This document shows positions 33,006 through 37,417 of a DNA stretch of 64,000 bases, piece by piece. The position numbers were made by a program, and so were the translations under genes. Position 1 is the stretch's first letter. Each line of letters opens with the position of its first letter. A model generated the notes under the pieces. That model did no database searches and was not told the DNA's origin. It was given only the letters and a program-made list of their open reading frames with translations. This DNA comes from a virus: the IMG/VR virus record IMGVR_UViG_3300020190_005317. One strand, written 5' to 3'.

Positions 33006-34658
33006 TTAAAAAAAGTAATTTAATTTTTGTTTGTCAATTAAGTTATATGTCCAAAAAAGGAATCCGTTTTCTGCCCAAGCGGAGTCAGATTTTAGAACTT
33101 TGTGATTTGATAGAAGTTTTTCTATCTTGACGGTAGTGATATTTTTTCCATTGCCAATATATTGAGTCATTCTCTCATCCAAAAGTTTCAAAGGTTCAAT
33201 CCAATCCTCACTTAATGTACTATTAAATTTTCCGAGTGATTGGGGTCTAACAAAAGTAACTCCATCAAAGAAAGCAGCACTTGGACCAGCTACTATACCG
33301 ACTTTTCTAAAAATTAGGTATTCTATTGTTGCTCTGTCATTTGATACAGTGGATCCTTTTCTTAATGATACAATGATTGACGAAGGTCTTCCGATATAAG
33401 TCTTGACACAATTGTTCTGATTTAAGCTTTCAGCGTTATATTCATCAGAGTTAGTGAGAATTATTGGATAATAAACTTCATCCTTATGTTGAATCGGTAT
33501 TTTAAATGCATCGTATAAACTCTGAGGATATATTCTAGTGTAAAAACCTCTTTTGTAGAATTCATACAAATCCGCCCAATCTAAGTGTTCTTTTGTAAAC
33601 TCATCCAAATTTTTTGACTTCCATTTAATGTTTTCACCAGCGCTTTTCAAATAACAATAGAAATCACAATGATCATAAAATGTGGACCAAGCAAATTCGT
33701 GATTCAATACTAACTTAGCAAGTACAAAAACTTTTTTCAGTTCACTTTTAGATGTATGTTCACCCAAAGATGGAAGTGTAATAGAAGTTGATTGGTCGTA
33801 ATCTAAACAAGCCTCAACAAATTCTTTGTCTTGTAAAACCCACTGCTCAGGGAAAAAACCCAACATGTATTTGAGTCTACTTACACTTAATGATTGTTTT
33901 GCATTATGTATCGCTTTCTTTATTACATCTCCTTTCAAGTCATAATCTGACATGAAAGCATCCACGAGTTTCATATTATGTTTTCTCAAGTTCTTTAATT
34001 TCGGTAGGAGTCCAAAACTTTTGAAATATAATTGGAAATTATTCGGGTATTTGATTCCTTTTTTTTCGAGGTAGAATCTGACAATCATTTGGTTGGGACT
34101 TTCAACATTTGACTTTTGAGGAAATAGTTGATTACAAAATAAATTAATTGCTTTATCAGCTATCTTAACACTCTCTTCCCTATTGAGAGGTAACCTTTTT
34201 ATAATATTACTTCTTAGTTGAGAAATTGGGTTACTACTAAAAAAGTTCCTTCTTATTTGCTTTATACATTGTTTTTTCTTGTTATAATCATTCAAAAATC
34301 CAGAATAAAGATCACCCCCCGAAAGGTTTACCGTCAGGAAATCAACATTCCTCGATATTTTAAACCAATGAAATCCCCTAATTCTTCTTTTGTAGCCGTG
34401 GAAAAGTTTTAGAGATATTTTGGTTTCACCAACCTTTTCCAATACAACCATCGTGTCAAATTTTGTTACTGTGCACAACTCATTGGCAAAATTTTCCACA
34501 AATACAGAGGGATCAGTACTAGTACTTTCATTTAAAAAAATCAACCTATCATTTTTTGTGTAATTTGAATGTTGATTCTCATCCACGATAGGAACATGAT
34601 CTTTGTGAAAAATGGTGAAATAATTGGTTAGACTGAATTTATAAATTTCTTGTTTCAT
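33006..34658 (-). CDS. Hypothetical protein (550 aa) upstream of, and overlapping, the collagen glycosyltransferase gene
   Basis: Long ORF with no recognised motif. It overlaps 34655..37417 by 4 nt, suggesting co-transcription. Confidence 0.45.
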   Translation of the reverse strand: MKQEIYKFSLTNYFTIFHKDHVPIVDENQHSNYTKNDRLIFLNESTSTDPSVFVENFANELCTVTKFDTMVVLEKVGETKISLKLFHGYKRRIRGFHWFKISRNVDFLTVNLSGGDLYSGFLNDYNKKKQCIKQIRRNFFSSNPISQLRSNIIKRLPLNREESVKIADKAINLFCNQLFPQKSNVESPNQMIVRFYLEKKGIKYPNNFQLYFKSFGLLPKLKNLRKHNMKLVDAFMSDYDLKGDVIKKAIHNAKQSLSVSRLKYMLGFFPEQWVLQDKEFVEACLDYDQSTSITLPSLGEHTSKSELKKVFVLAKLVLNHEFAWSTFYDHCDFYCYLKSAGENIKWKSKNLDEFTKEHLDWADLYEFYKRGFYTRIYPQSLYDAFKIPIQHKDEVYYPIILTNSDEYNAESLNQNNCVKTYIGRPSSIIVSLRKGSTVSNDRATIEYLIFRKVGIVAGPSAAFFDGVTFVRPQSLGKFNSTLSEDWIEPLKLLDERMTQYIGNGKNITTVKIEKLLSNHKVLKSDSAWAENGFLFWTYNLIDKQKLNYFF

Positions 34659-37417
34659 ATGATTGTACCAAAATAGTTACAATTACAAATGTAACAAAAA
34701 TATCCATTCCCTTTTATATTTTCCGAAAGTTTAACATCCCAATCGCCATCTGAGTGTTCCGTATCTTGGGAAAGGGCTTGATTAACATTTACCCTAAAAT
34801 CGTTCTCAATTAAAATTATACCTGAAATAATCTCCACAGACCATATTCCGCGTTTGTTGTATTTCACATAATCTAATTTCAAATCACCTTCAGTAATATG
34901 AAAATTTACGTGGTCCACAGTTTCGGAAACGATCATGGGGGAAATCATTTTTTTATTTGACCTTATTAAAATTTCGATTGAGTTTGTATTTCGTAATATA
35001 AAATTAGAATCAATAATTAAATAATAGTCCGTCTCTCTATCCTGAAGAAAATCTATCCTTGATTCGGTTAGGTTTTTATTTTCTTTTATTTCAACAGACA
35101 TATAATCTTTGTTGTTTTCTTTGAATTTTTCAAGTTTGTATAAATCTGATTCTTTGTTGTAGTACAATACCAATTTTATCAGATTCTTAGGGAATTTCTG
35201 TATTTTTAATAAGTCCAAAGATTGATTAATATCTTTCAAATCATGTTGAAAAAACAAACCTATTGATATTGTCTTTTTTGTTTGAGTTTCCATAATTTTT
35301 GAGTTATTTCCATAAAAAAAGTCATAGTTAAGAGTCATGAAGTCCGTGATTTTATCTAAGAAGTTTTTAACTTTCTCGGGACCATTTGCATGAATTACTG
35401 AGGGAAAATTATCAGTCACTCTATTTCTTATCCTTCCAACTAAATCCATTTCTATGTCTTCTATTGATTCATTAAGAGTCTGAAAAATATATTGATTATT
35501 ATCCAAGAATATTTTTGATGGTATATCAAATCCATATCTTTTAGTGTATAACCCGAATCCCTTCCCTTTCCCAACGGAATCAGGAGTATTTACCCATTTT
35601 CTCAAATGTAGTTCTGAAAAATTGGATTCCATAATCTCGGGAGTAAGATCCGACTGATGATGATGTCCCCACTTGTTTTCGTAATCACCATCCCAAACTT
35701 GTTCATACTCAAATGGTACCACTATTATAATTTCGCCAAATTTGTTTTTATTTTTTTTCAACCAATTTTGAGCATCCTCCCTTTTCACGTGTTCGAACAC
35801 ATCACCCATGATTATCACATCATAATAATCAAAATCAAAATCTAAAAAATTTTCAACAAATACATTTTTGTAATACTCCTTCAATCCGTATCTGTTAACA
35901 TACGGTTCAAATATCTCAATTGCATCAATATTTGAAAAATGTTCACCTAGGACATATCCCCATTTTCCATCACCAGCACCTATGTCAAGTATCTTTGAGT
36001 TTTTATTAAATTTAGTTCTCAAAATTTCAATTACATCTTGATCAAACACAACTTCGCTCATCCATCCTATTTTGTGTCCCGAATTGGATAAAGGGTATTT
36101 ATTATTAGGTAAATTTGTCTCCGTTTTTTCTACTAAGTGTGGTTTGGTGGTGTGAATTTGTTCAAGGTATCTTTCAGAGTAATATAATTGATCGTCGTCT
36201 TTATCATCTATTGGATCATTAATCAAACTAATGATTTCGTCAGCATAACCAATGAATCCACCTGAGTTCAAAAATTTATATTTGGTTAATGATGCAGGAT
36301 ATTGATCAATCAAAGATGGGTTGGGCCAACAAATTTTTTCTGCTGAGAAGACTATGGGTCTTCTGAATTCTCTAAATTTTTGTAAAATTTGTTGAGGGTT
36401 TTGAAGTAACATAACATCATATGAGTCTGTGAACATTATAATGTGGTCCTCGAGTTTGGGCCATCCTTTTAATTCATTTCTCAAGAGATTTATTTTCTGG
36501 CCTCCTCCGAAAGTTTTCAAGATTCCATTTTCAGCTTCACCTCCCACCCAGGTTTGACCCAAGCCAAGTATTTTATAAGGTATACCAAAATATTCACAAG
36601 ACTTACGAAATCTATCCAAACGATCATTTTCCTCCGTAGCAACGGTTATTAATAAAAATTTATCGATTCCGTCATCATAGTAGTCATTCTTGAAATAGAT
36701 TGAGCTTTTTTCAGTCTGTGAGTTTTGAAAAGCTAATGTTTCAGGTTTTATCAATTGCTCTTTGAGACCTAAACCTTTGAGAAATTTGATGTCATAATTT
36801 TTTTTGTATTGAATGCAATTTGGATTGGCCCTGTTCAACATTATAGGTACAAATTCATCTGCGGGAATCAAAGCATTTAGGAAGTTTGAGTTTACTAAGT
36901 TCTGTGAACCCTTTTTAGTTAGGATATAAGAGAGACACCAATAAGAGAAGTCAGGGATTACAACGTTTTTTTTCAATTCAAATTCATAGTTTGGATTGAT
37001 AACCTTTCTACCCAAATAAAAAAAGTCCCATTGGTAATCACCCGTCCATTCTTTTACTTGTTTAAGTTTATCTGTAAACTCAGGACAGAACTGTGCATCG
37101 TCTTCTAGTATTAAAGCAGATTTAATTGTGTCATCATTTTGAATTAATTCCCAAGCTCTATAATGTGAAATTGCACATCCAATCTCACCAAGTGTCAGAC
37201 CTCTACCTCTGTAACTGTCGTAGTAGTCTGCCAACGGTGTAATTTTGTTTTCTTTCAACCATTCTTCATCAATCGATGTGCCATCAACTGCTTCTATTCT
37301 TATAATCCTAATTTCTTTGTCTAAACCTAAATTTTGAATTCTTGATAAAATTCGATCGTAGCGATCTTTACACCTCTCTAAATTGATTATTATGATCGTA
37401 TCATACATGAGTTCCAT
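34655..37417 (-). CDS. Multidomain collagen glycosyltransferase-like protein: GT25 (COLGALT-like) + PLOD/LH3-like glucosyltransferase domain + class I SAM methyltransferase insert + C-terminal GT-like region
   Basis: The N-terminus (IIIINLERCKDRYDRI...IEAVDG...LTLGEIGCAISHYRAW...ILEDDAQF) matches the GT25 family pattern. Residues about 250-560 (LLITVATEENDRLDRFRKSCEYFGIPYKILGLGQTWVGGE...FGGGQKINLLRNELKGW...IIMFTDSYDVMLL...IVFSAEKICWPNPSLIDQYP...KFLNSGGFIGYADEIISLINDPIDDKDDDQLYYSERYL...VIHANGPEKV) closely track the N-terminal glycosyltransferase domain of lysyl hydroxylase 3. ILDIGAGDGKWG...IIMGDVFEHV is SAM methyltransferase motif I. Confidence 0.8.
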   Translation of the reverse strand: MELMYDTIIIINLERCKDRYDRILSRIQNLGLDKEIRIIRIEAVDGTSIDEEWLKENKITPLADYYDSYRGRGLTLGEIGCAISHYRAWELIQNDDTIKSALILEDDAQFCPEFTDKLKQVKEWTGDYQWDFFYLGRKVINPNYEFELKKNVVIPDFSYWCLSYILTKKGSQNLVNSNFLNALIPADEFVPIMLNRANPNCIQYKKNYDIKFLKGLGLKEQLIKPETLAFQNSQTEKSSIYFKNDYYDDGIDKFLLITVATEENDRLDRFRKSCEYFGIPYKILGLGQTWVGGEAENGILKTFGGGQKINLLRNELKGWPKLEDHIIMFTDSYDVMLLQNPQQILQKFREFRRPIVFSAEKICWPNPSLIDQYPASLTKYKFLNSGGFIGYADEIISLINDPIDDKDDDQLYYSERYLEQIHTTKPHLVEKTETNLPNNKYPLSNSGHKIGWMSEVVFDQDVIEILRTKFNKNSKILDIGAGDGKWGYVLGEHFSNIDAIEIFEPYVNRYGLKEYYKNVFVENFLDFDFDYYDVIIMGDVFEHVKREDAQNWLKKNKNKFGEIIIVVPFEYEQVWDGDYENKWGHHHQSDLTPEIMESNFSELHLRKWVNTPDSVGKGKGFGLYTKRYGFDIPSKIFLDNNQYIFQTLNESIEDIEMDLVGRIRNRVTDNFPSVIHANGPEKVKNFLDKITDFMTLNYDFFYGNNSKIMETQTKKTISIGLFFQHDLKDINQSLDLLKIQKFPKNLIKLVLYYNKESDLYKLEKFKENNKDYMSVEIKENKNLTESRIDFLQDRETDYYLIIDSNFILRNTNSIEILIRSNKKMISPMIVSETVDHVNFHITEGDLKLDYVKYNKRGIWSVEIISGIILIENDFRVNVNQALSQDTEHSDGDWDVKLSENIKGNGYFCYICNCNYFGTII

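Follow-up and report, generated by a model that had tools for sequence, protein, structure and literature searches.

A collagen-type glycosyltransferase fusion with a nested methyltransferase, predicted to glycosylate hydroxylysine on the collagen-like fibres of a probable jumbo phage

Glycosylated hydroxylysine is held to be a hallmark of animal collagens, with mimivirus as the lone viral exception. In humans the modification involves three chemistries: the hydroxylation of lysine and the transfer of a first and of a second hexose. The glycosyltransferase (GT), accessory (AC) and lysyl hydroxylase (LH) domains of human LH3/PLOD3 reside on one chain. The galactosyltransferase COLGALT1 (GLT25D1) is a separate two-domain protein, and the complex is a tetramer in the endoplasmic reticulum (ER) (PDB entries 8zgc, 6fxk and 9evj). 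Both E435 and D437 of COLGALT1 are essential (PMC12003778). The viral enzyme L230 of mimivirus acts on virus-encoded collagen-like proteins. It is a proven lysyl hydroxylase and hydroxylysine (Hyl) glucosyltransferase, and its N-terminal GT with the residues E106-D107-D108 adds glucose (Glc), not galactose (Gal) (PMC9614988). Mimivirus R699 is a proven Gal-Hyl glucosyltransferase (PMC9546862), and mutagenesis has shown that D83/D86, E114, W118, D162/D163 and N218 are needed for its activity (PMC12279948). Here, a candidate counterpart of these systems is described for a 64,000-nucleotide (nt) stretch of viral DNA, IMG/VR record IMGVR_UViG_3300020190_005317 (the whole stretch is called the window). 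It centres on a gene for a multidomain protein of 920 amino acids (aa), found together with three genes for collagen-like fibre proteins and with genes for PLOD-type hydroxylases.

Prokaryotic collagens are described in a 2022 review as generally devoid of hydroxylysine modifications, and phage collagens as short capsid motifs (PMC8968730). Iyer et al. predicted in 2010 that bacterial dioxygenases, along with sulfation and other enzyme families, modify collagen-like or tail-collar proteins (PMC2938197). Phage 2-oxoglutarate (2OG) oxygenases are usually read as DNA-repair genes or as auxiliary metabolic genes (AMGs) (PMC11288001).

The 920-aa protein consists of a GT25 domain, an LH3-type GT domain that is split by a methyltransferase, and an accessory domain. 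The boundary between GT and AC domain (~aa 711/712) is approximate and was set from the LH3 alignment and the secondary structure of the model. The gene and its segments are as follows.

34655..37417, minus strand: multidomain collagen-type glycosyltransferase/methyltransferase gene, the whole open reading frame (ORF) including the stop codon, 920 aa from an ATG start (Pfam and AlphaFold2)
36674..37408, minus strand: GT25 domain, aa 4-248, a homologue of COLGALT1's catalytic GT2 domain, with the metal motif E105-D106-D107
36143..36664, minus strand: N-terminal part of the PLOD/LH3-type GT domain, aa 252-425 (LH3 alignment)
35528..36127, minus strand: inserted class-I S-adenosylmethionine (SAM) methyltransferase, aa ~431-630, with the motif LDIGAGDGKW (Pfam, PDB profile and Foldseek)
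35285..35512, minus strand: C-terminal part of the PLOD/LH3-type GT domain, aa 636-~711, with H676, N678 and K684
34661..35284, minus strand: LH3-type AC domain, aa ~712-919 (LH3 alignment to chain position 492)

Pfam matches the protein to GT_PLOD (PF25342; 1.9e-69 over two stretches; 234 bits, cut-off 27), to Glyco_transf_25 (1e-22, residues 7-176; 81.4 bits, cut-off 24) and to Methyltransf_23 (1.8e-8, residues 464-555; 34.7 bits, cut-off 27). Among PDB sequences, human LH3 is matched at 1e-55, with residues 252-419 of the query aligned to chain positions 14-178 of LH3 and residues 636-919 to positions 187-492. Mimivirus R699 is matched at 1.8e-43 and COLGALT1 at 1e-38. The COLGALT1 alignment pairs residues 4-248 with chain positions 312-556, the catalytic GT2 domain, at 31% identity over 245 residues; a separate comparison of the GT25 domain with COLGALT1 GT2 gave 1.1e-33 over residues 4-232. 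As sequence matches, the scores for LH3, COLGALT1 and R699 are well past chance level.

Because the LH3 alignment splits around aa ~431-630, the methyltransferase is an insertion inside the LH3-type GT domain. The alignment runs to position 492 of the LH3 chain; therefore an AC domain is also present, and a PF13704 match is precomputed for family members in this region. The AC domain is probably non-catalytic, judging from a D-x-N where DxD is expected. The chain ends with this domain and carries no lysyl hydroxylase domain. Thus, the protein is not a PLOD orthologue in the sense of the full-length lysyl hydroxylases 1-3; it is an R699-like GT+AC core with additional domains. The two-domain architecture of COLGALT is likewise missing, as the non-catalytic GT1 domain is absent. 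An earlier note on the window, made from its letters, had proposed GT25, an LH3-type GT and an inserted class-I methyltransferase on the basis of short blocks of similarity (VATEEN, GGGQK, IIMFTDSYDV, FSAEKICWP, FLNSGGFIG, KDDDQLYY and VIHANGPEK). Every block is found in the translation, and the proposal is borne out by Pfam, the PDB search, AlphaFold2 and Foldseek, with the AC domain as a part that had been overlooked. Profile searches could have placed the middle domain in an unrelated GT-A family; it is specifically PLOD-type.

For residue mapping the printed LH3 alignment was converted to LH3 numbering (chain index + 23). Conservation was read from a family alignment of 61 sequences (A2), and 43 sequences of GT25-bearing relatives were used for the GT25 motif. 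The segment aa 252-425 holds the glycoloop, D331-x-x-D334, E360, W364 and D408-D409. The Mn2+ ligands D112, D115 and H253 of LH3 correspond to D331, D334 and H676. E141 and W145 of LH3 correspond to E360 and W364, the poly-Asp residues D190/D191 to D408/D409, and N255 to N678. These nine positions, counting K684, are invariant (61/61). Among them are the counterparts of all R699 residues named above, that is the DxxD Mn2+ motif (D83/D86), E114, W118, D162/D163 and N218. The assignment as a GT_PLOD domain is supported by the profile, the Mn2+ ligands, the acceptor residues and a GT-A fold with accessory domain. In the GT25 domain, which is identified by its profile and by the E-D-D motif, E105-D106-D107 aligns with E-D-D, an unusual metal motif, of COLGALT1 and is kept in 43/43 GT25-bearing relatives.

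An AlphaFold2 model based on A2 has a mean predicted local distance difference test score (pLDDT) of 91 and a predicted TM-score (pTM) of 0.87. Its sole weak block (pLDDT 62 at aa 291-300) lies in the region aligned with the LH3 glycoloop. Foldseek matches the model in the PDB to LH3 (1.5e-39), R699 (TM-score 0.85, normalised to R699), COLGALT1 (1.2e-18, 31% identity) and mimivirus R655 (1.7e-9). For the PLOD-type domain, UDP-Glc:Gal-Hyl glucosyltransferase activity is predicted.

R699 (PDB entries 9dyt, 9dzs and 9e92) has a GT and an accessory domain without LH, as does the core of the 920-aa protein. Compared to R699, the 920-aa protein adds the N-terminal GT25 domain and ~200 aa of methyltransferase inside the catalytic domain. 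L230 shares the layout of GT25 followed by PLOD-GT, and the E-D-D motif is found at the same position in both proteins (E106-D108 in L230, E105-D107 here). The best structural match in BFVD is K7YEL3, the L230 orthologue of Megavirus, which aligns over 943 columns with approximately the whole 920-residue model (2.8e-50, TMq 0.59). L230 differs in that it carries LH on the same polypeptide and lacks a methyltransferase insert, whereas in the window the 208-aa LH has a gene of its own at a distance of 26 kb, and a tandem paralogue. Furthermore, L230 belongs to a virus of eukaryotes, and the 920-aa protein would belong to a phage of bacteria, with its chemistry predicted. The three chemistries of the human LH3-COLGALT1 complex are implied for the phage as well, in another arrangement: a galactosyltransferase-like domain, GT and AC share one chain, LH is separate, a methyltransferase is added and GT1 of COLGALT1 is absent. 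Neither a signal peptide nor an ER setting is expected in the phage.

The putative substrates are encoded at lower position numbers of the window.

22387..25173, minus strand: collagen-like fibre protein 1, 928 aa (Pfam Collagen 3.7e-42, Peptidase_S74 2.5e-11)
25166..28096, minus strand: collagen-like fibre protein 2, 976 aa (Pfam Collagen 5.2e-91, Peptidase_S74 5.6e-8)
28096..31242, minus strand: collagen-like fibre protein 3, 1048 aa (Pfam Collagen 6e-102, Peptidase_S74 8.1e-16)

The three collagen-like genes of the earlier note are thus genuine, each with both Pfam domains and with Lys at position Y. In runs of at least five triplets, fibre proteins 1, 2 and 3 contain 214, 254 and 255 Gly-X-Y triplets, respectively. 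Lys occupies position Y 17, 27 and 3 times (47 in total). Counted in six-triplet runs, a single Lys is found at position X across the three proteins. Pro is mostly at X and is found at Y 4-6 times. The Lys at position Y is the residue that PLOD enzymes hydroxylate. The Peptidase_S74 domain, an intramolecular chaperone, lies at the C-terminus of all three proteins. Fibre protein 1, the only one scanned against PHROGs, matches tail-fibre families (e.g. phrog_6320, 8.9e-95). Its collagen-like region is made of 35 Gly-X-Y runs of 5-6 triplets with two-residue breaks and a period of ~37 aa; fibre proteins 2 and 3 have one unbroken run each, of 254 and 255 triplets. The collagen genes have a G+C content (GC) of 45-49% compared to 33% elsewhere, and they give rise to many spurious nested ORFs.

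The hydroxylases lie at the edge of the window.

63111..63737, minus strand: stand-alone PLOD-type lysyl hydroxylase, 208 aa (matches to the LH domains of LH3 and L230)
63718..64000, minus strand: 3' part of a divergent lysyl hydroxylase paralogue, cut at the window edge; the full 205-aa gene is at 9403-10020 of locus L008

The 208-aa protein, read from the start as a PLOD-like lysyl hydroxylase, is a real member of this family. It matches the LH domains of LH3 (3.9e-25) and mimivirus L230 (1.7e-21) in the PDB, and its HHD, its H and its R (in QRY) align with the Fe(II)/2OG motif of LH3. It also matches Pfam OGFOD2-like (1.4e-7) and positions 433-630 of phrog_61 (6.1e-24). The second gene had been taken for a P4H-like oxygenase. 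Its full length was recovered from overlapping contigs, and the 205-aa product is a paralogue of the 208-aa LH (29% identity, 7e-21 by BLASTP). In the PDB it matches LH3 weakly (0.0043); the match to prolyl 4-hydroxylase (P4H) is non-significant (0.27), and identity as a prolyl hydroxylase is thereby ruled out. The paralogue keeps HxD and the distal His, and in the pairwise alignment an Asn stands opposite the 2OG-binding Arg. It may be a non-catalytic (dimer) partner of the 208-aa LH. The two genes overlap in tandem, with the divergent one upstream.

The genomic context of related enzymes was surveyed by scripted scanning for domains in 95 loci, complemented by later look-ups. In the Synechococcus phages S-8S55 and S-PRM1 (and S-CAM9) a gene for a 1452-aa 'tail fiber protein' with Collagen and S74 domains is followed by a small ORF, by two 2OG-FeII_Oxy_3 oxygenases and then by a ~620-aa triple fusion of GT25, PLOD-GT and LH. 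This fusion matches COLGALT1 (3.9e-20), LH3 (2.7e-34) and the LH domain of L230 (2.1e-9). Lys is the commonest Y residue of the S-8S55 and S-PRM1 fibres (24/55 and 23/59). In the Roseobacter phage CRP-6 (45 kb), gp60, a 'putative tail fiber protein', carries 26 Lys at Y among its 99 triplets, with GAKGQKGE repeats, and gp58, two genes downstream in the structural module, is again a triple fusion. The triple fusions (S-8S55 WLW37668.1, S-PRM1 AXN58392.1 and CRP-6 gp58) have about 30% identity to the 920-aa protein over GT25 and GT, adjoin Y-Lys-rich collagen-repeat and S74 tail-fibre genes, and match the same PHROG profile. In contrast to the 920-aa protein, they are ~590-620 aa long, lack AC and methyltransferase and carry LH fused at the C-terminus.

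The only annotations of these fusions are 'hypothetical' and '2OG-Fe(II) oxygenase'. The latter is the label of phrog_61 (category moron/AMG), whose profile of 689 positions spans GT25, PLOD-GT and LH; the GT of the window matches positions 23-370 (6.3e-42), and its LH positions 433-630 (6.1e-24). Many phage genes labelled as phrog_61 may thus be collagen-modifying triple fusions. As to the earlier statement that such machinery was not known in a phage, no paper on it was found, and the genes are already contained in deposited genomes of cultured phages and in phrog_61. In the literature search, no report came up of bacteriophages with hydroxylysine or with collagen glycosyltransferases of the PLOD or GT25 type; subscription journals lay mostly outside this search and a prior mention is possible. 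In S-8S55 (locus L014, 4794-5974 and 9504-10753) two extra 2OG-FeII_Oxy_3 genes are located between the fibre gene and the triple fusion, and two 2OG-FeII_Oxy_5 oxygenases follow a tail-assembly chaperone. Several distinct hydroxylations of cyanophage fibre proteins may occur.

Complete metagenome-assembled chromosomes of Arenicellales and other Gammaproteobacteria, and 'Porisulfidus' genomes, contain contiguous cassettes of collagen-like ORF(s), then a stand-alone ~200-215-aa LH and then a GT25+PLOD-GT fusion. Nine bacterial loci have cassettes of collagen, LH and GT25+PLOD-GT. In L107-L113 and L115 the cassettes lie around 5000-9500 of each locus. They would represent the pathway in a prokaryotic cell. 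Stand-alone ~270-aa GT_PLOD genes are found in Bacteroidota and Actinomycetes, with collagen not nearby. Many homologues lie on contigs of giant-virus metagenome-assembled genomes (GVMAGs) and have GT25+GT(+AC)+LH architectures. Across phages, bacteria and giant viruses, a collagen gene, a hydroxylase and GT25/PLOD-GT are repeatedly found in physical linkage. The link to the fibres is strengthened because the three are contiguous in cultured phages and in bacteria. Co-occurrence of LH and GT on IMG/VR contigs is uninformative owing to fragmentation (relatives lie on different contigs, with one pair from the same sample).

The window combines the folds and conserved catalytic motifs of collagen glycosyltransferases with Lys at position Y of its fibre proteins and a PLOD-type hydroxylase. 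With a probability of about 0.8, the 920-aa enzyme glycosylates hydroxylysine on the collagen-like fibres of the phage. It would act as a cytoplasmic multifunctional enzyme on the phage's own fibre proteins. The 2OG/Fe(II)-dependent LH (63111..63737), maybe with its paralogue, would first convert the Y-position Lys of Gly-X-Lys to 5-hydroxylysine, presumably on unfolded fibre chains ahead of trimerisation. The GT25 domain with its Mn2+ site E105-D106-D107 would then move the first hexose from a UDP-sugar onto the hydroxylysine oxygen. By analogy to COLGALT1 this sugar is expected to be Gal; by analogy to L230 it could be Glc. The LH3/R699-type GT-A domain would add the second sugar, most likely α-1,2-glucose from UDP-Glc, using D331/D334/H676 for Mn2+ together with W364, E360, D408/D409 and N678. 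In the last and weakest step, the methyltransferase would methylate the product, most likely at a sugar hydroxyl, which would cap the glycan. As in LH3 and R699, the accessory domain would be a scaffold without catalytic function. Once modified, the chains would be brought to trimerise into virion fibres by the S74 domains.

The methyltransferase insert occupies a loop of the LH3-type GT domain directly after the poly-Asp helix. A Rossmann-like fold, motif I and an acidic residue after β2 identify it as a class-I SAM methyltransferase. Motif I (LDIGAGDGKW) and the acidic residue (E501) are kept in ~40/43 sequences, and a GHHHQ(S/P)DL motif is conserved in the insert (alignment A3). Searches for a subfamily in Pfam, NCBIfam, PDB profiles and by Foldseek gave generic class-I matches only. 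Further Pfam matches of the insert are Methyltransf_12, Methyltransf_25 and DREV. Its profile weakly matches PDB sequences of 3cc8 (1.4e-5), METTL9 (1.6e-5) and NTMT1 (3.3e-4), and the METTL9 and NTMT1 matches cover the SAM-binding half. Foldseek matches the insert to NTMT1 (1.7e-8), with the protein N-terminal methyltransferases NTMT1/NRMT2 at about 2e-8. Assignment to the METTL9/DREV or NTMT1 subfamily was rejected, as DREV reaches 20.2 bits, below the cut-off of 26, and the PDB profile E-values are weak.

O-methylation of a sugar is the favoured prediction for the insert over protein methylation, which stays a live alternative. It is favoured because stand-alone homologues of the methyltransferase reside in GT clusters, because the insert adjoins the acceptor-binding helix, and because the chlorovirus protein A064R sets a precedent. 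A064R of PBCV-1 is likewise a viral enzyme with two GTs and a class-I SAM methyltransferase on one chain (GT-GT-MTase). Its MTase 2-O-methylates the rhamnose that the enzyme has attached immediately before to the glycan of a virion protein (PMC9614988). The likeness is one of function: the A064R rhamnosyltransferases act on N-glycans of the capsid protein and belong to unrelated GT families, and its MTase is C-terminal, not inserted into a GT. The stand-alone homologues (E about 1e-26) share a GT cluster with stand-alone GT_PLOD in the Bacteroidota Mucilaginibacter (L117) and Thalassobellus (L128). In the former (2051-3352) the methyltransferase (MT) homologue is directly adjacent to GT_PLOD and a GT61 is present in the cluster; in the latter (7884-11108) two ORFs, one of them a GT2, lie in between. 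Both clusters may represent an unfused precursor of the MT-in-GT architecture. An HlyD-type gene is also present, and a collagen gene is not nearby.

The 920-aa protein has hundreds of metagenomic relatives. In the lineage of the window, the block order is Hc1, DnaJ, Dam, a leucine-rich repeat (LRR) protein, a ~97-aa ORF, a variable slot and a 550-aa ORF. Next come a ~105-122-aa ORF, thioredoxin, glutaredoxin, an oppositely oriented ORF of ~250 aa and finally the collagen genes. Slot contents by locus are as follows.

Locus L034 and others: GT+AC (R699-like), ~477 aa
Loci L013, L016 and L017: GT(MT)+AC, ~692 aa
The window: GT25+GT(MT)+AC, 920 aa
Locus L104 (2930-8004): two tandem copies, 657 aa and 921 aa, a duplication of the unit of 98-aa ORF and GT
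Locus L105 (7201-9668): an unrelated DUF932 gene, 249 aa
Locus L103 (8001-9719): empty

The ~477-aa relatives have exactly the layout of R699. Collagen genes are located downstream of the slot in nearly all loci of the lineage. Lys accounts for 40-53% of the Y residues in the downstream fibres of loci with GT+AC, for 34-41% with GT(MT)+AC, for 0-12% in the group of the window and for 0-4.7% in two GT-less relatives. This correlation fits a role of the GT in fibre glycosylation and is only a trend, with n=2 for GT-less loci. As part of the broader reading given at the end, the modular series in one slot is tentatively taken as a record of stepwise enzyme assembly, from GT+AC through addition of MT to addition of GT25.

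Several observations weigh against the proposed pathway or parts of it. In the window, 26 kb separate the hydroxylase gene from that of the GT, and the two do not share an operon. The window's own fibres have 1-12% Lys at Y, which overlaps the upper end of the GT-less relatives (0-4.7%). The designation as 'tail' fibres is taken from PHROG names and the S74 domain. The R351-D570 salt bridge of COLGALT1 is not evidently kept, as C16 stands opposite R351 and the alignment stops before D570. Capsid, portal and terminase genes were sought in PHROG and Pfam scans of 74 ORFs of the window and a 10-kb flank, and none was found. Lys-rich fibres (34-53% at Y) also accompany the 477-aa and 692-aa relatives without GT25. 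In these, either the PLOD-GT glycosylates Hyl directly or a GT25 is encoded elsewhere in the genome. A Gal-then-Glc order cannot be assumed, because the L230 GT with its N-terminal E106-D107-D108 adds Glc; the first sugar is not inferable from homology. Finally, the nearest solved relatives of the insert, METTL9 and NTMT1, are, if weakly, protein methyltransferases, and its substrate could be a protein.

The specific sequence of Gal, Glc and O-methyl is a less certain part of the proposal, rated at somewhat less than even confidence. The rival that survives best is a less probable variant of the same pathway with other chemistry, in which Glc-Hyl or a non-animal glycan is formed and the methyltransferase acts on protein (the ε-N of Lys or Hyl, His or the N-terminus). 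It draws on the Glc transfer to Hyl by L230 (PMC9614988), on the GT25-less relatives beside Lys-rich fibres and on the METTL9 and NTMT1 matches of the insert in sequence (1.6e-5 and 3.3e-4) and fold (1.7e-8 for NTMT1). On the other hand, the GT25 domain is nearer to COLGALT1 (31%, 245 residues) than to any glucosyltransferase of solved structure, and R699, the closest GT+AC homologue, is inactive on Glc-Hyl (PMC9546862). The residence of stand-alone MT homologues in glycosyltransferase clusters and the methylation of a sugar by the fused MTase of A064R (PMC9614988) likewise speak for a glycan substrate. Glycosylation of hydroxylysine on the fibres is common to both versions.

That the fibres belong to a phage is suggested by the genome. 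The window has 33% GC and is 96% coding, with 76/90 ORFs on one strand. It encodes a bacterial-type factor of the sigma-70 class (phrog_351, 3.3e-52), the DNA methylases Dam and N6/N4, T4-type DenV, SbcCD, a UvrC-like nuclease, DUF3310, DUF5856, an amidase, DnaJ, Hc1, thioredoxin, glutaredoxin and tRNA-Met. The located genes among these are the following.

8200-8272: tRNA-Met
39131-39970: Dam
40238-41164: DnaJ
42728-42904: Hc1
49672-50472: sigma factor
54488-55756: UvrC-like nuclease
57875-60253 and 61780-62559: SbcCD

The same gene order recurs in several freshwater-lake assemblies. Because of the bacterial- and phage-type accessory and replication genes and the tail-fibre-like collagen/S74 proteins, the genome is very probably, on its gene content, that of a divergent jumbo phage. 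The phage setting assumed in the earlier note is thus supported, the gene content being phage-like and not giant-virus-like. It is highly improbable that the window derives from a giant virus of eukaryotes, with another L230/R699-type set, or from a bacterial chromosome. Such an origin would accommodate the many homologues on GVMAG contigs, the top BFVD matches to Megavirus and Moumouvirus proteins and the lack of capsid, portal and terminase. Furthermore, no match was obtained in deposited phage genomes with the DNA of the window, nor in phages by tblastn with three proteins of the lineage (1139, 550 and 453 aa). The giant-virus or bacterial origin is contradicted by the gene content, coding density and strand bias described above. 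Additionally, the SbcC-like protein has its nearest matches in uncultured phages of 484-735 kb, and syntenic relatives on contigs of 214-304 kb, which encode a TonB-dependent receptor and glutamine synthetase, carry no GVMAG label in IMG/VR. Most ORFs of the window have no family, unlike those of a bacterial chromosome.

It is also highly improbable that the enzyme remodels host lipo-oligosaccharide or another host glycan (e.g. for superinfection exclusion) with the collagen genes as unrelated neighbours: the JGI name for some of the family is indeed 'GR25 family glycosyltransferase involved in LPS biosynthesis', the PHROGs category of related families is 'moron/AMG/host takeover' and the stand-alone GT_PLOD genes of Bacteroidota and Actinomycetes lie among other GTs, but the best solved matches are collagen enzymes (COLGALT1 1e-38, LH3 1e-55), bacterial GT25 structures are absent among the PDB matches of the 920-aa protein at E <= 0.01, the acceptor-site residues of LH3 are all invariant, and phages, bacteria and giant viruses repeatedly show an association with PLOD LH and collagen genes, by fusion or adjacency.

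The 550-aa ORF (33006..34658, minus strand) overlaps the GT gene by 4 nt. This overlap had been reported correctly, together with a position upstream of the GT gene; by direction of transcription the ORF is downstream. It had also been considered a probable part of the module. It is present in the same syntenic block without GT in L103 and L105, and membership in the module was rejected on this ground. The slot varies while the ORF stays: the ORF belongs to the core genes of the lineage, and the GT is accessory. Neither a family in Pfam, NCBIfam or PHROGs nor a sequence match in the PDB was found for the ORF, and structural matches of its confident AlphaFold2 model (pLDDT 86.8) do not go below E 0.6. 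At least 395 relatives were found, every one of them hypothetical. A conserved 446-aa protein (37747-39087, minus strand) is always encoded two genes upstream of the slot; its C-terminal LRRs weakly resemble the Xanthomonas type III effector XopAC/XopL (~1e-7). A second glycosyltransferase (15728-16654, minus strand; phrog_2644, 6.5e-19) has a weak GT11-like match and could extend or diversify the glycans of the fibres or others. The host-like genes of the window form a set that is unusual in a phage: full-length DnaJ, the chlamydial-type histone-like Hc1 and, from a bulk Pfam scan, APS kinase, PspC, a Band_7/SPFH protein and cobalamin adenosyltransferase (1.3e-48).

The enzyme families described here are known. 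New are their setting with collagen-like fibres of phages and bacteria, the methyltransferase nested in a GT-A domain, which is a new enzyme architecture, and the modular accretion in one slot. The finding extends beyond the window, since related genes have gone unrecognised in cultured phages and bacteria. The cultured phages S-PRM1, S-CAM9, S-8S55 and CRP-6 carry the related triple fusion, and the prediction is therefore open to a direct test by mass spectrometry. If the pathway is as proposed, these compact enzymes of prokaryotic origin (a galactosyltransferase-like and a glucosyltransferase domain on one chain and a 208-aa LH) would be candidates for the production of glycosylated recombinant collagen in bacteria, an unmet need (PMC9546862). 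In the broadest and still tentative reading, phages, like some bacteria, possess a full pathway for the O-glycosylation of hydroxylysine in their collagen-like fibres, homologous to the metazoan one, the lineage of the window adds methyl-capped glycosyl-hydroxylysine, and the prokaryotic and phage forms are perhaps ancestral to the enzymes of giant viruses and animals. Should the prediction hold, the origin of the metazoan collagen-modification machinery would be testable with abundant bacterial and phage homologues. Methyl-capped glycosyl-hydroxylysine on virion fibres would be a protein modification not previously described. The receptor-binding fibres of these phages would bear a dense, enzyme-written glycan coat, with consequences for host range, protease resistance and fibre stability.

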